A DNA stretch of 30,097 bases, from the IMG/VR virus record IMGVR_UViG_2724679538_000002, one strand, 5' to 3'. The position numbers were made by a program, and so were the translations under genes. The stretch comes from a virus. Its lineage: Duplodnaviria > Heunggongvirae > Uroviricota > Caudoviricetes. The notes under the pieces are model-generated. The model was given only the letters and a program-made list of their open reading frames with translations. It made no database searches and was not told the origin of the DNA. Shown here one piece after another: positions 2,273 through 7,165 of the stretch; positions within the stretch are counted from its first letter, which is position 1, and every line of letters begins with the position of its first letter.

Positions 2273-2761
2273 ATGAGTCTTTTGAATGAAGTTCAGAAAT
2301 TCATTGAAGCCCATCCGGGGTGTACTTCCGGAGACATTGCGGATGCTTTTGCAGGTTACTCACGGCAGCGCGTTCTGCAGTCAGCAAGCAAGTTACGTCA
2401 GAGTGGGCGTGTGGCTCACCGTTGTGAAGGGGATACACGCAGACATTTCCCGCGCCTGACTGAGAGAGCACAGGAGCCGGAACCACAACCAGTTCGTGAA
2501 ACCAGACCTGTGCGCAATTTCTATGTCGGCACTAACGATCCCCGTGTGATTTTGTGCCTGACCCGCCAGGCTGAAGAACTGGAGTCCAGGGGCTTATACC
2601 GTCGTGCTGCAACGGTGTGGATGGAGGCATTCCGTGAAAGCCACTCCCAGTCAGAACGAAACAATTTTCTGGCGCGCCGCGAGCGGTGTGTACGCAAAAG
2701 TAAAAGGTGCGTGGCATCGGGTGAAGAGTGGTATCTGCCAGGCAATTACGTGGGGGCTTAA
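2273..2761 (+). CDS. putative transcriptional regulator, PerC-like C-terminal region (tentative)
   Basis: 162-aa ORF starting 4 nt after the upstream stop. The C-terminal segment '...GLYRRAATVWMEAFRESHSQSERNNFLARRERC' resembles my recollection of PerC/Pch-type activators. Not verified. Confidence 0.4.
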   Translation: MSLLNEVQKFIEAHPGCTSGDIADAFAGYSRQRVLQSASKLRQSGRVAHRCEGDTRRHFPRLTERAQEPEPQPVRETRPVRNFYVGTNDPRVILCLTRQAEELESRGLYRRAATVWMEAFRESHSQSERNNFLARRERCVRKSKRCVASGEEWYLPGNYVGA

Positions 2762-3087
2762 TGACGACGTTAACTCAATGCCAGCAGCAGGTGCTGGATA
2801 TGCTGATTTCTTACCAGAAAGAACGTGGCTTCCCGCCAACCAATCAGGAGGTGGCAACCATGCTGGGATACCGTTCGGTGAATGCAGCGGTGGAGCATCT
2901 TCGCGCACTGGAGAAAAAAGGCGTCATCACGATAAAGCGTGGCGTGGCCCGGGGGATAACGCTTCATACCGCAGTGAAGGACGACGACAGCGAGACGGTC
3001 GGGATTATCCGCGCACTGCTTGCCGGTGAGGAAAACGCCAGGCTGCGTGCAACTCACTGGTTACATGAGAGGGGCCTGAAAGCATGA
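2761..3087 (+). CDS. LexA N-terminal DNA-binding-domain protein lacking the S24 peptidase domain
   Basis: 'MTTLTQCQQQVLDMLISYQKERGFPPTNQEVATMLGYRSVNAAVEHLRALEKKGVITIKRGVARGITL' aligns by eye with the E. coli LexA N-terminus ('[58 protein letters not shown]...'). The protein is only about 108 aa, so it has no room for the cleavage site or protease domain. Start overlaps the upstream stop (TAATG). Confidence 0.75.
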   Translation: MTTLTQCQQQVLDMLISYQKERGFPPTNQEVATMLGYRSVNAAVEHLRALEKKGVITIKRGVARGITLHTAVKDDDSETVGIIRALLAGEENARLRATHWLHERGLKA

Positions 3088-3473
3088 AGCTTATCCTGCC
3101 TTTTCCGCCCAGCGTGAACACGTACTGGCGACACCCTAACAAAGGGGCGTTTGCAGGTAAGAGCCTGATAAGCGCGGCGGGGCGAAAATTCCAGAGCGCG
3201 GCGTGCGCAGCAATAGTTGAGCAGTTACGTCGTCTGCCGAAACCAACGTCGGCACCTGCTTCAGTGGAGATCGTGTTGTTTCCTCCTGATAACCGGATCC
3301 GCGATCTGGACAACTATAACAAGGCGCTGTTTGACGCCCTGACCCACGCGGGTGTGTGGGAAGACGACAGCCAGGTAAAAAGAATGTTGGTGGAGTGGGG
3401 ACCGGTTATCCCGGAAGGGAAGGTCGAGATCACTATCAGTAAGTACGAGAAAACGGCGGGTGCAGCCGCCTGA
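3084..3473 (+). CDS. rusA: RusA-family Holliday junction resolvase
   Basis: 'MKLILPFPPSVNTYWRH...' with the conserved acidic region 'DLDNYNKALFDALTHAGVWEDDSQV'. Typical size (129 aa) and typical position in a lambdoid nin-like region. Confidence 0.9.
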   Translation: MKLILPFPPSVNTYWRHPNKGAFAGKSLISAAGRKFQSAACAAIVEQLRRLPKPTSAPASVEIVLFPPDNRIRDLDNYNKALFDALTHAGVWEDDSQVKRMLVEWGPVIPEGKVEITISKYEKTAGAAA

Positions 3474-3492: not shown

Positions 3493-4302
3493 ATGAATAA
3501 TCTGATGGTCATTGATGGTATTGAAGTTCGTCGTGATGCTTATGGACGTTACAGCCTGAACGATCTGCATCGTGCCGCAGTAGCATCTGGTGCAAATGCC
3601 AGAACGAAGGAGCCGGGAAAGTTTCTTTCCAGCCAACAGGCTGTTGAACTTGTTCAGGAATTGACCGATACCCAAAATTTGGGTATCGGTCCGGTTAATA
3701 CAGTTCGTGGTGGTCCTAAGCAGGGGAGTTATGTCTGCAAGGAACTGGTGTATGCCTATGCAATGTGGATCAGTCCGTCATTCCATCTGAAGGTGATCCG
3801 TATTTTCGATATGGTAGTCAGTGCACCGGAAAAATTATCCGGGCAGGCTGCTGACAAGATGCAGGCAGGTGTGATTCTGCTGGACTTTATGCGTCGGGAG
3901 TTAAACCTGTCTAACTCATCTGTGCTTGGGGCCTGTCAGAAACTCCAGGAGGCTGTTGGCTTACCGAATCTGGCACCGCGCTATGCCATTGATGCTCCGG
4001 CTGATGCGCCCGATGGTTCAAGCCGCGCCACGCTGTCACTGAGTGCACTGCTGAAGCTGTATGGTATCCGCCTGACGGCTAATCAGGCATATCACCAGAT
4101 GGCGAAGCTGGGGATCGTTGAACAACGCGAACGATACAGTCGTACCGCGATTAACAACATTAAAAAATTCTGGTCGCTGACGGCGAAAGGCTGCATGTTC
4201 GGCAAGAACATCACCAGTCCTGCAAATCCGCGCGAGACGCAGCCGCATTTCTTCGAATCCCGATTCCCTGAGCTGTTAAAGCTGCTCGATACCGTTCATT
4301 GA
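3493..4302 (+). CDS. KilA-N domain protein
   Basis: N-terminus 'MNNLMVIDGIEVRRDAYGRYSLNDLHRAA...KFLSSQQAVELV...VYAYAMWISPSFHLKVIRIF' has the characteristic KilA-N pattern. Good RBS ('aagaggag') upstream. Confidence 0.85.
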   Translation: MNNLMVIDGIEVRRDAYGRYSLNDLHRAAVASGANARTKEPGKFLSSQQAVELVQELTDTQNLGIGPVNTVRGGPKQGSYVCKELVYAYAMWISPSFHLKVIRIFDMVVSAPEKLSGQAADKMQAGVILLDFMRRELNLSNSSVLGACQKLQEAVGLPNLAPRYAIDAPADAPDGSSRATLSLSALLKLYGIRLTANQAYHQMAKLGIVEQRERYSRTAINNIKKFWSLTAKGCMFGKNITSPANPRETQPHFFESRFPELLKLLDTVH

Positions 4303-4303
4303 G

Positions 4304-5299
4304 GTGACCGTGAGAGCACTACTGACCCCTGAAATTGCCCCGCGTATGGGGATCGTATTGTTCAGACCAGGTTCAGAGCTGATGCCCCTGTTTATGCAGG
4401 GGCGTGTCCTGCTGGAGCCTGAGCCGGAACGTTATTCATCTTTTGCCAGTGGTGCCGTTCCGGCGGCATCACAACCGCTGGCGGATGATCCTGCCGTTCG
4501 GGGCGTGTTCCGCAATGAGGCAGTGATCCGTCGTGCTGGTGGCGTGGAATGTCTTGAAAGCTGGTTACTTCGTGAAAAGGGCTGTCAGTGGCCTCATTCC
4601 GACTGGCACAGCGAGAACATGACCACAATGCGCCACGCGCCTGGCGCAATCCGTCTGTGCTGGCACTGCGATAACCAGTTGCGTGACCAGTTCACGGAAC
4701 GGCTGGAATCAATGGCAACGGATAACTGTGCCCGCTGGGTGTTATCTGTTGTGCGCCGTGATCTCGGTTTTGATGACAGTCACGTTGTGACAATGCCGGA
4801 ACTGTGCTGGTGGCTGGTTCGTAATGACCTGGCGGATGCCTTACCGGAAAGTGCAGCCCGTAAGGCACTGAGATTACCGAAGCCTGTTGTGCCGTCTGTC
4901 ACCCGGGAAAGTGACATTGTGCCTTCGGTTCCGGCCACCAGCATCATCCAGGATAAAGCGAAAAAGGTGCTGGCGCTGAAAGTGGATCCGGAGTCGCCGG
5001 AGTCTTTTATGTTACGCCCAAAACGTCGCCGCTGGGTTAACGAAAAGTACACGTGCTGGGTTAAGACGCAGCCGTGTGCATGTTGTGGAAAGCCAGCCGA
5101 TGATCCCCACCACCTGATAGGCCACGGCCAAGGTGGAATGGGTACAAAAGCGCATGACCTCTTTGTATTGCCTTTGTGCAGAAAGCATCACGACGAGCTG
5201 CATGCGGATACCGTGGCATTTGAAGAGAAATATGGCTCCCAGCTGGAGCTGATATTTCGTTTTATCGATCGTGCGCTGGCAATTGGCGTGCTGGCCTGA
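4304..5299 (+). CDS. DUF968-like prophage protein with C-terminal Cys/His (HNH-like) cluster
   Basis: GTG start 1 nt after the KilA-N stop. The C-terminal 'CWVKTQPCACCGKPADDPHHLIGHG...LPLCRKHHDELH' is a zinc-binding/HNH-like motif. Sits immediately upstream of Q, as ydfU-like genes do in E. coli cryptic prophages (from memory). Confidence 0.5.
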   Translation: MTVRALLTPEIAPRMGIVLFRPGSELMPLFMQGRVLLEPEPERYSSFASGAVPAASQPLADDPAVRGVFRNEAVIRRAGGVECLESWLLREKGCQWPHSDWHSENMTTMRHAPGAIRLCWHCDNQLRDQFTERLESMATDNCARWVLSVVRRDLGFDDSHVVTMPELCWWLVRNDLADALPESAARKALRLPKPVVPSVTRESDIVPSVPATSIIQDKAKKVLALKVDPESPESFMLRPKRRRWVNEKYTCWVKTQPCACCGKPADDPHHLIGHGQGGMGTKAHDLFVLPLCRKHHDELHADTVAFEEKYGSQLELIFRFIDRALAIGVLA

Positions 5300-5316
5300 T
5301 TTTGTGGAGAAAGTTG

Positions 5317-5682
5317 ATGCGTGATATTCAGATGATTCTTGAACGTTGGGGAGCATGGGCTGCGAGTGATAACTCTGGTGTTGATTATTCACCTATAGCT
5401 GCTGGGTTTAAGGGGCTTCTTCCCTATACCAGCAAGACACGTCTGGCTTGTTCGGATAGTGATGCATTAATTATTGAAGGTTGTCTTGCTCGTCTAAAGC
5501 AAAAAAGACCTTATGAGCATTCGCTTCTTGTGGCACATTATTTATACAGAATATCCAAGCGTAAGATTGCAAAGGCGCGTGGAAAGGATGAGAAATTGAT
5601 ACGTATAGAAATACAGTTAGCCGAAGGATTTATTGATGGCTGCCTTTCCATGCTAGATCTAACATTAGATTTGGACGTTTAA
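5317..5682 (+). CDS. late-gene antitermination protein Q (short Q / QuuD-like family)
   Basis: 'MRDIQMILERWGAWAASDNSGVDYSPIAAGFKGLLP...CSDSDALIIEGCLARLKQ...' matches the short (about 125 aa) Q antiterminator family. RBS 'ggagaaag' precedes the ATG at 5317. Confidence 0.85.
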   Translation: MRDIQMILERWGAWAASDNSGVDYSPIAAGFKGLLPYTSKTRLACSDSDALIIEGCLARLKQKRPYEHSLLVAHYLYRISKRKIAKARGKDEKLIRIEIQLAEGFIDGCLSMLDLTLDLDV

Positions 5683-5683
5683 T

Positions 5684-5715
5684 AATACGCCCCATGCAGG
5701 GGCGTATTATTTACT
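5684..5715. terminator. bidirectional intrinsic terminator between convergent Q and KAP genes
   Basis: Perfect 10-bp stem 'aatacgcccc'/'ggggcgtatt' with a 5-nt loop, 1 nt after the Q stop and directly abutting the KAP gene stop, followed by a T-rich tract. Confidence 0.65.
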
Positions 5716-7042
5716 GGATGAATGACATTTGATTAATATATTTTATCAATAACTCTCTGGGTGTAGTACTCCAAAAATTTAGGTGTTCATAATCAGTATA
5801 AACATTTGTGAATTTTTTAAGTTCTTCATCACTTTTAGGGGCAAATCGCTCATTAAGAGTAATACTGTCTTTAATTATTCCGAAGAATACAATAGATATT
5901 TCAGGAATTTGTGATCTTCTCTCATAAGAATAAGGTATTTCTTTTATGTTAAGCAGGTCTGCTAAATGAGATATAGATTCAGCGGTAATTTCTTGTTTTA
6001 GTTTTTCCTTGTCACCAAAGCAATGTATGAAGACAGCTACGACAAAGATCCTATTTATTAAAGGATCACTGCTTTTGTACTCATCGTCGTTTAACAGTTG
6101 AAAAATGTTAAGATTACGTGAAAAAGTTTGTGTTTCACGTAAGGATAAGTTGGTTCGTTGAATTAAATCACGGATAAATCTACCAGATAAACTATTAATT
6201 TCATTTAGTGATTTCGTCTTGTCTACAAGGTAATTCCAATATATAACAGATGTTTTACATACGACGTGACCATCTATTAAACATGTATCTGGAAGCGTGA
6301 TGGTATATTTTATAAACTTGTCAAGATACTTTTGTGAGTTAATACTATAACCATAAATATGATTTATCGATGCTTTTAATTGTTCTGTGTTTGTAACTAA
6401 AATAAAAAAAACATTATTGATGTCAAAAATGTGTTTTATTGTTTCAATGACATTTGTTGAAAAACTCGGCTTACATCGGTCTAATTCATCAATTATAATT
6501 ACTATCTTTTGATTTTCTGAAATGCTTTCGATGCAAGATTTAAGTGAATTTATGTTTTTCTCTGATTCCATATGGTCTTCAAGCAAATTTTCAATAGTCC
6601 CATCTATTGCTGCATTGCTTGCTTTCTTCATCGCATCTTGGAATTCTTCGGCAACTTCACTAGCCTCCTGTCGTAAAAACCAACCTGCACCAGCTTTTAG
6701 TACCGTTTTTAAACCAAATCGAATTGCAGGAAGAGATCTCTTAATGAAGTGTTGTTTTTCTTCCTCAGGCAAAATGCTGGCAATTGCAGAGGTTATGAGA
6801 AGTAATGGAGATTCTGCATGATCCCCTTTAAAGGCATCAATATAAACAACTTTAGATTCGGTTTCTTGCTCAATAATGAGATTTTTCAGTTTGATACTAA
6901 ATTCTGTTTTCCCTGTTCCCCATGCGCCGTCTATTACCAGTGGTGAAATGTCTGCCTCTGGTTTTAGCAACTTGATGATATTTTCAGCGATGTTTCTTCG
7001 TTGGAACTCGTCACGTTCAGTGAAAGATAGTGTATCTAACAT
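5711..7042 (-). CDS. KAP-family P-loop NTPase
   Basis: Walker A in the KAP-typical form 'IDGAWGTGKTEF' and Walker B 'IVIIIDELDRC'. 443 aa with no alternative frame. Visibly AT-rich relative to flanking phage genes. Convergent with Q. Confidence 0.85.
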   Translation of the reverse strand: MLDTLSFTERDEFQRRNIAENIIKLLKPEADISPLVIDGAWGTGKTEFSIKLKNLIIEQETESKVVYIDAFKGDHAESPLLLITSAIASILPEEEKQHFIKRSLPAIRFGLKTVLKAGAGWFLRQEASEVAEEFQDAMKKASNAAIDGTIENLLEDHMESEKNINSLKSCIESISENQKIVIIIDELDRCKPSFSTNVIETIKHIFDINNVFFILVTNTEQLKASINHIYGYSINSQKYLDKFIKYTITLPDTCLIDGHVVCKTSVIYWNYLVDKTKSLNEINSLSGRFIRDLIQRTNLSLRETQTFSRNLNIFQLLNDDEYKSSDPLINRIFVVAVFIHCFGDKEKLKQEITAESISHLADLLNIKEIPYSYERRSQIPEISIVFFGIIKDSITLNERFAPKSDEELKKFTNVYTDYEHLNFWSTTPRELLIKYINQMSFIQ

Positions 7043-7165
7043 AATATAAACCTGTTAACTCCTACAGTAAAAAACGAATAATACGACTTTGGGATTAAAA
7101 ATCATTAACGCGGTCCGCAAAAATTCTTGTAATCTGTTAAGAGTGGTTACTTCGCCACACAGCTT

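Follow-up and report, generated by a model that had tools for sequence, protein, structure and literature searches.

A stand-alone LexA-type DNA-binding protein with a predicted helical tail in place of the protease domain, encoded in the delayed-early region of a lambdoid prophage

The DNA analyzed here is a stretch of 30,097 nucleotides from the virus record IMGVR_UViG_2724679538_000002 (Duplodnaviria; Heunggongvirae; Uroviricota; Caudoviricetes), which is called the window below. Its open reading frame (ORF) at 2761-3087 encodes a protein made of a LexA-type DNA-binding domain and a short tail predicted to be helical, while the S24 protease domain of LexA is missing. The gene is intact and under selection. 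It belongs to the rightward operon of an mEp460/SfV-like lambdoid prophage and lies in the nin (delayed-early) part, as the early-region location proposed in a previous interpretation of the letters alone (the sequence-only reading) had anticipated. We infer that its regulatory role is probably repression, and SOS-like boxes are the favored target for the variant found in the window, with a rough probability of 0.4.

Domain architecture of the LexA-domain protein

The gene and the parts of its product that carry the argument are as follows.

2761-3087, + strand: LexA-domain gene, complete, 108 aa plus stop; stand-alone LexA-type DNA-binding protein of phrog_362
2761-2964, + strand: LexA winged helix-turn-helix, residues 1-68 (PF01726, 1LEA, AlphaFold2, Foldseek 3JSO)
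2878-2916, + strand: recognition helix, residues 40-52, VNAAVEHLRALEK (alignment to LexA)
2965-2982, + strand: acidic linker of variable length, residues 69-74
2983-3069, + strand: two short helices, residues 75-87 and 91-103, in the place of the S24 domain (AlphaFold2 model)
3022-3027, + strand: Ala88-Gly89, aligned with the LexA cleavage site Ala84-Gly85, in a predicted inter-helix turn

The resemblance of residues 1-68 to LexA exceeds chance by far. The Pfam model PF01726 (LexA_DNA_bind) matches residues 1-65 over model positions 1-65 of 65 (E=2.9e-19, 69 bits, gathering cutoff 23.7), and a phmmer search against the PDB pairs residues 2-70 with residues 2-70 of the E. coli LexA DNA-binding domain 1LEA (E=6.5e-16). 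This alignment is ungapped at 51% identity, in agreement with the nearly position-by-position match over some 70 residues that the sequence-only reading had claimed. A tblastn search of the window with E. coli LexA gave 51.5% identity over 68 residues. The AlphaFold2 model, built from a 12-sequence alignment (mean predicted local distance difference test, pLDDT, 78.6), contains helices at residues 6-22, 28-35, and 40-52 and wing strands at 56-58 and 66-68, and Foldseek superimposes it on the LexA-DNA complex 3JSO with a root-mean-square deviation (rmsd) of 1.0 A over 68 residues and 50% identity.

According to a previous study, LexA contacts bases through S39, N41, A42, E44, and E45 (PMC3091678). 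The window protein carries S, N, A, V, and E at these positions, so that four of the five are kept and E44 is replaced by Val; S39 (nucleotides 2875-2877) directly precedes the recognition helix. In the same alignment, H46 and the R64-G65-I66 wing of LexA are also kept.

The protease half could not be found. The TIGR00498 model of LexA matches over positions 1-91 of 203 only, with a score of 70.5 against a cutoff of 110.95, and the LexA C-terminal domain, used as a tblastn query, has no S24 match in the window, whichever frame is read (best E=2.7). The protein stops at residue 108 and holds no S24 domain with the Ser/Lys dyad, which bears out the absence claimed earlier. The Ala-Gly cleavage site had been reported as absent too, and this is literally wrong, as Ala88-Gly89 is present and HMMER pairs the segment RALLAG with GRVAAG of LexA, which holds the A84-G85 site; the slip is functionally harmless. 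In relatives, the position is occupied by AN, VG, TR, SG, DD, AD, or AC. Because the pair is unconserved and lies in a predicted inter-helix turn, it is no maintained cleavage site, and a conserved Ala-Gly in an exposed loop or strand was not observed; the idea that the pair serves as a cleavage-site decoy was rejected on the same grounds. As the protein has neither an S24 domain nor a functional cleavage site, RecA* cannot inactivate it. The RecA insensitivity put forward by the sequence-only reading thus follows from the architecture itself, a LexA DNA-binding domain without the protease domain.

Structure prediction of the C-terminal tail, a check proposed in the sequence-only reading, returned the two helices listed above, with a pLDDT of about 82 for the block. 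They follow a linker in which residues 71-75 have a pLDDT below 50 and in which indels occur in the alignments. The hydrophobic pattern of the tail is kept down to 38% identity, A97 and L101 being invariant in the alignment of relatives, and a Foldseek search with the model found no PDB fold matching the tail. We suggest that the predicted tail may be a dimerization module, because it occupies the position of the LexA dimerization domain and because the LexA DNA-binding domain needs a dimerizing partner to repress. Fusions of the LexA domain repress sulA-lacZ only when they carry such a partner, which is the principle of the LexA-based two-hybrid system (PMC7595419).

Distribution of the family

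The window protein matches the phrog_362 profile from end to end, tail included (residues 1-107 on profile positions 1-105 of 106, E=5e-59). Of 5426 complete E. coli genomes, 2233 (~41%) carry the LexA-domain gene, and close relatives of 106-108 aa were found in E. coli, Shigella, Salmonella, Citrobacter, and Hafnia. Full-length relatives from other enterobacterial prophages share 38-66% identity with the window protein; those added by an exhaustive profile search over 1.84 billion representatives are 38-50% identical, namely P0122, P0124, P0125, P0128, P0132, P0133, P0139, P0147, P0152, and P0164. All full-length relatives consist of a LexA-type domain, a short variable linker, and a homologous tail, which is longer in the distant ones.

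The locus is conserved as well. Replication genes, often followed by a DNA methyltransferase gene, precede the LexA-domain gene, and RusA, DUF968, and Q come after it; this order was seen in the window, mEp460, Kosakonia L005, Enterobacter L008, and the loci L052, L054, L056, and L057. The RusA gene overlaps the LexA-domain gene in the window, L005, L008, and L054, adjoins it in L056, and is separated from it by one gene in L052 and L057.

Full-text literature searches for a functional study of the LexA-domain gene or phrog_362 found none, only catalog mentions. The usual annotations are 'LexA family transcriptional regulator', 'LexA-like protein', and 'transcriptional repressor', and a 'LexA family transcriptional regulator, pfam01726' was listed as Pham 237 in 15 Stx phages (PMC8136144). 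RgdR, a regulator of O157 prophages, was considered as the same protein and turned out to be a different one, encoded on the cryptic prophage CP-933C. Membership in a defense system was also considered and set aside, PADLOC giving a weak partial CARF-like match only (E=3.6e-4).

SOS-type boxes in the window

A scan for CTGT-N8-ACAG, which had been proposed together with the original claim, identified three perfect cores in the window against 0.38 expected, a number reached in none of 100 shuffles. Over eight family loci, N8 is the sole enriched spacing (13 against 2.6 expected), although some of these loci share DNA and are not independent. A position-specific scoring matrix (PSSM) derived from 23 E. 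coli SOS boxes was used to grade the sites; its scores serve as leads and not as a reference standard. The three sites are as follows.

7667-7686, no strand assigned: strong SOS-type box TACTGTAAAAATAAACAGTG, perfect core; PSSM 22.9, training median 21.4
7050-7069, no strand assigned: moderate SOS-like box ACCTGTTAACTCCTACAGTA; PSSM 12.9, overlapped by a promoter-like match
186-201, no strand assigned: weak CTGT-N8-ACAG core inside the Ash/Rha ORF; PSSM below 10, same sequence in mEp460

The strong box lies within codons 3-9 of a late-region N6/N4 DNA methyltransferase gene (7659-8711, + strand), and is also found in mEp460 (L001 41021), in L056, and in Kosakonia L006, where spacer changes alter amino acids. 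It could serve as an operator of host LexA and perhaps of the phage LexA-domain protein, and these findings point to control by LexA or to a roadblock where the late region begins. The moderate box starts 8 bp before the start codon of a minus-strand gene, PDC-S20 (5711-7042). This gene encodes a 443-aa P-loop (KAP/PifA/QatA-like) protein assigned by PADLOC to the candidate defense family PDC-S20 over its full length (E=6.7e-177), and is a low-GC insert (29-38%, with ~55% on either side) separating Q from the late genes. The core at 186-201 is probably non-functional.

For the window copy, which is flanked by overlapping ORFs, no promoter with an SOS box was detected immediately ahead of its transcription unit; box and promoter scans found no box within 4 kb of the LexA-domain gene other than the weak core at 186-201.

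Probable SOS-controlled operons in the distant P0132-like subgroup

A different arrangement was observed among distant members. Eighty viral contigs encoding P0132-like members, apparently from Klebsiella-type prophages, were collected, and 69 of them had enough upstream sequence. A near-consensus SOS box is located 300-1700 bp upstream of the conserved GYPPT motif, which marks the start of the helix-turn-helix, at 63 of these 69 loci; 21 distinct box sequences were found, TACTGTTTATTTATACAGTA being the commonest. These upstream intervals contain 70 boxes per 96.6 kb, whereas the remainder of the loci has 18 per 748 kb and shuffled sequence 8 per 5.24 Mb.

In L167, L052, and L056, the box overlaps the -10 element of a sigma-70-like promoter. 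The operon of L167 encodes a DinI homologue (PF06183, E=1e-23), phrog_1813, the LexA-domain protein (phrog_362, E=8e-40), phrog_1212, and DUF968, and in L052 and L056 the promoter is followed by a small gene (phrog_1813 in L056) and then by the LexA-domain gene, with no dinI between. From this layout of promoters and boxes, the LexA-domain gene of the P0132-like subgroup appears to be under the control of host LexA.

Several other features were recorded in these and related loci. In mEp460, a dinI gene lies behind two SOS boxes. Just upstream of the dinI operon of L167, a gene at 4837-5206 encodes a 109-aa UmuD-like protein (phrog_3469, starting GFPSPAKDY) with no Pfam match, and is preceded by a terminator and by a perfect SOS box of its own, TACTGTATATATATACAGTA. 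In L052, a toxin-immunity-like pair of genes (RNAse_A_bac and a faint CdiI_2 match; 3863-5232, - strand) is divergent from, and beside, the SOS-box promoter of the LexA-domain operon. A near-consensus box, TACTGTTTTTACATACAGTA (17-18 of 20 consensus positions), is located inside the cI coding sequence, in the linker between the helix-turn-helix and S24 parts, in L001 (mEp460; 31970-31989), L002 (7103), and L004 (1865), and 28 of 80 E. coli-type loci have this cI-internal box. Ten E. coli-type loci carry a strong box, TACTGTATTTATGAACAGTG, 764 to 2113 bp downstream of the start of the LexA-domain gene; in one of them, L079 (10765-10784), it is intergenic, shortly after RusA, where the window has KilA-N, and probably controls a different cargo gene. 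Finally, adjacent AcrVA2-like and Cas1 Pfam matches were found in L056 (9794-11390, - strand), downstream of the late-region methyltransferase gene.

Target DNA and alternative explanations

In the favored mechanism, the helical tail would dimerize the protein, replacing the LexA C-terminal domain in this role, and the dimer would bind a palindromic operator. Since S39, N41, A42, E45, H46, and R64-G65-I66 are kept and only E44 is changed, to Val, the half-site is expected to be CTGT-like, and the protein would occupy SOS-type boxes. Its repression would be damage-proof, continuing after host LexA cleavage and prophage induction. Candidate targets would be SOS promoters of the host, operons under LexA control in co-resident prophages, and, in the window itself, the boxes at 7667-7686 and 7050-7069. 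A more general proposal, that phrog_362 proteins are RecA-proof LexA surrogates which re-occupy vacated SOS boxes after prophage induction or the firing of SOS operons, must be considered doubtful.

Several observations weigh against SOS-box binding. The reading helix, SVNAAVEH in the window, appears in the family as SGNAAFEH, SQNAAAEH, SPNAAAEH, SVNAVAEH, SSNAVLLH, SPNAVALH, SQNTVFIH, SPNAATDM, SVNTITGH, and SPNAALTH, whereas full-length LexA proteins from the same search mostly carry NAAEEHL or NAAEDHL. E44 occurs in no family member, and many lineages have L, I, T, D, or G in place of E45. Dependence on the invariant host SOS box should have frozen this helix. The boxes upstream of LL-type and AL-type genes are still canonical; these boxes are therefore probably sites of host LexA and uninformative on the target of the phage protein. 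Host LexA alone would explain them, as it does in the Gifsy dinI-antirepressor operons, which have no LexA-domain gene (PMC3121763). The boxes common to the window and mEp460 are not independent either, as the DNA is ~96% identical. The tail helices have modest, unremarkable helical moments. The only characterized phage protein consisting of a LexA domain alone points elsewhere as well: gp6 of GIL01, 44% identical to the LexA domain of its host, binds the palindrome GaCACAC-GTGTGaC and activates a promoter (PMC6182141). The claim that the protein holds SOS boxes repressed is only partly supported. The four kept contact residues, the wing, the enriched boxes, and the repression of sulA by dimerizing LexA-domain fusions speak for it, the variation of the reading helix and the gp6 precedent speak against it, and occupancy of SOS boxes is the favored reading by a narrow margin. 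As the reading helix differs between lineages, the overlap with SOS boxes may belong to this lineage and not to the family as a whole.

The same variation is what would be expected of a phage-specific regulator with a retargeted LexA-derived domain and its own non-SOS operator, which would activate or repress one or a few phage promoters, for instance those of late, nin-region, or immunity genes, and have no direct effect on the host SOS response. Such a private, lineage-specific operator is a serious possibility, nearly as likely as SOS-like boxes. The reading helix diversifies at contact positions 42-46 in the style of immunity repressors, beside SOS boxes that stay canonical, the loss of E44 extends to every member, gp6 reads a different palindrome at a late promoter, P3, and the conserved site just upstream of Q and the late region would fit a timing regulator. 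However, the window variant departs from LexA at just one of the five contact residues, late transcription is already served by the Q antiterminator, and neither a conserved palindrome other than the SOS box nor another enriched dyad turned up around the gene or in the rest of the loci. The search covered inverted repeats around the gene, perfect palindromes of at least 7 bp common to the members of a reading-helix group, and the enrichment of 5-mer dyads. It gave no usable operator, the only matches being terminator hairpins, repeats within coding sequence, and the SOS box.

The protein might instead interfere with LexA, either by sharing half-sites with LexA monomers or N-terminal fragments or by competition, and thus shift the timing of SOS induction and shut-off. 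Another SOS modulator, the DinI homologue, is co-transcribed with the gene in the SOS-controlled operon of L167, and the dinI gene of mEp460 with its two boxes fits the same idea. Kim and Little reportedly found in 1992 that LexA N-terminal domains dimerize on operator DNA. We consider interference improbable, as the conserved tail of ~35 residues favors self-association or a specific partner over a bare competing domain, contact with LexA has no support in the data, and the variable reading helix speaks against dependence on SOS boxes. A non-transcriptional role, in which the DNA-binding protein would be an accessory or targeting factor for RusA or for the upstream DNA methyltransferase, is quite improbable. 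It would account for the overlap with or proximity to RusA described above and for the methylase gene, which is directly upstream in mEp460, L005, L054, and L057 and one small gene further in L008 and L056. However, RusA is not beside the gene in L167-type loci, the upstream methylase is absent from the window, the nin-region order is conserved as a module for many unrelated genes, and RusA works alone in vitro.

That the gene is a decayed, functionless remnant of a full-length lexA or cI-like gene is hardly credible. Some database entries, such as P0001, P0005, P0033, and P0112, are fused or truncated, but the length and the tail are kept in thousands of genomes, the tail being homologous down to 38% identity, and translational coupling to RusA is conserved. 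No S24-like sequence was found in any frame downstream or anywhere in the window. Disruption of a longer gene by a frameshift had been named in advance as the finding that would overturn the sequence-only reading; comparison with close relatives, which keep the length, the tail, and the RusA overlap, excluded a frameshifted lexA or cI remnant and showed the gene to be intact.

Genomic context of the gene

At the nucleotide level, the window shares 96-99% identity with mEp460, SfV, Ayreon, 2H10, and many Stx2c phages. A survey of the genes around the LexA-domain gene, mostly by Pfam and other domain matches, gave the following features.

83-1234, + strand: Ash/Rha regulator (domain matches)
1452-2270: HTH_36/DnaD-like replication protein (Pfam-level gene survey)
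2273-2761, + strand: PerC-like (YfdN-like) gene; Pfam PerC, E=5.3e-9; phrog_1324
3084-3473, + strand: RusA Holliday-junction resolvase; Pfam RusA, E=6.1e-15
3493-4302: KilA-N protein
4304-5299: DUF968/HNH protein
5302-5682: antiterminator Q

The protein encoded by the LexA-domain gene begins with MTTLTQCQQQVLDML and ends with HERGLKA. Its ATG at 2761 overlaps the TAA stop of the PerC-like ORF by one base, and its TGA stop (3085-3087) forms an ATGA overlap with the RusA ATG at 3084. An alternative GTG start at 2728 would give an ORF of 119 aa (2728-3087), but all close homologues of 106-108 aa begin with MTTLTQ. A signal scan of the window found no promoter-like or terminator-like signal near the gene. 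In most relatives, a Dam-like DNA adenine methylase gene (35775-36428 in mEp460) lies between the PerC-like and LexA-domain genes, and it is missing at 2759-2763 of the window.

The Ash/Rha regulator at 83-1234 is a single 383-aa ORF with an Ash domain (residues 117-213) and a Rha domain (residues 223-308), and its start codon is uncertain. The same arrangement of Ash and Rha is found in mEp460, where it is annotated as a transcriptional regulator or antirepressor.

Comparison with known systems and biological meaning

E. coli LexA (1LEA, 1JHH, 3JSO) shares with the window protein the winged helix-turn-helix, at 51% identity over residues 2-70 and an rmsd of 1.0 A. Unlike LexA, the window protein has no S24 domain with Ser119/Lys156, and hence no self-cleavage, no RecA* response, and no dimer interface of the LexA type; it also has Val at position 44 and a two-helix tail of ~35 residues. 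The closest arrangement made by engineering is found in the LexA two-hybrid fusions, in which a LexA-type domain and a heterologous dimerizer make an uncleavable protein that suffices to repress sulA-lacZ (PMC7595419). These fusions contain the authentic E. coli domain, whereas the window domain is 51% identical to it and carries E44V, and its tail is a predicted dimerizer.

Phage regulators consisting of a LexA DNA-binding domain alone are already known as a kind through gp6 (UniProt Q5ILC6) of the Bacillus thuringiensis tectivirus GIL01 (Fornelos et al. 2018, PMC6182141). Compared by its published description, gp6 resembles the window protein in being a LexA DNA-binding domain without the catalytic domain, encoded by a phage in which induction is linked to the SOS response. 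However, gp6 ends after the wing, which is formed by a 14-residue extension, and has no helical tail; it binds its operator at -43.5, in overlap with the -35 element, when it activates the late promoter P3 (PMC6182141). GIL01 is a tectivirus of a Gram-positive host, whereas the window gene is found in enterobacterial lambdoid phages with Q antitermination.

LexA-controlled dinI-antirepressor-irsA operons trigger the induction of Gifsy prophages (Lemire et al. 2011, PMC3121763). The operon of L167, where the LexA-domain gene comes third, resembles them in layout: it follows the replication genes and comprises a terminator and a sigma-70 promoter containing an SOS box, as well as dinI and the gene of a small protein. 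The third Gifsy gene, irsA (STM1020, 200 aa), does not encode a LexA-domain protein, and the window copy has no SOS promoter in front. Gifsy IrsA was rejected as a member of the same family, as tblastn found no match in Gifsy phages and STM1020 is unrelated, and phrog_1813 has no detectable similarity to GftA that would mark it as a GftA-type antirepressor.

Carriers of the gene include Stx2c, Stx2a, SfV/SfII, and cdtI converting phages. Should the protein bind SOS boxes, it would amount to a naturally occurring LexA that cannot be cleaved, and could alter SOS mutagenesis, persistence, and the expression of toxins and colicins, as well as the cross-induction of co-resident prophages after DNA-damaging antibiotics. 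If family members act as LexA surrogates, the host SOS regulon, including SOS toxins and colicins, would be closed, LexA-controlled antirepressor operons of rival prophages would be silenced, and a phage-encoded SOS off-switch would exist in ~40% of E. coli genomes. If the protein has an operator of its own, it would be an unrecognized regulator of lambdoid development, encoded just upstream of Q. Either way, the placement in LexA-controlled operons of P0132-like prophages, with dinI in L167, ties the gene to the induction switch.

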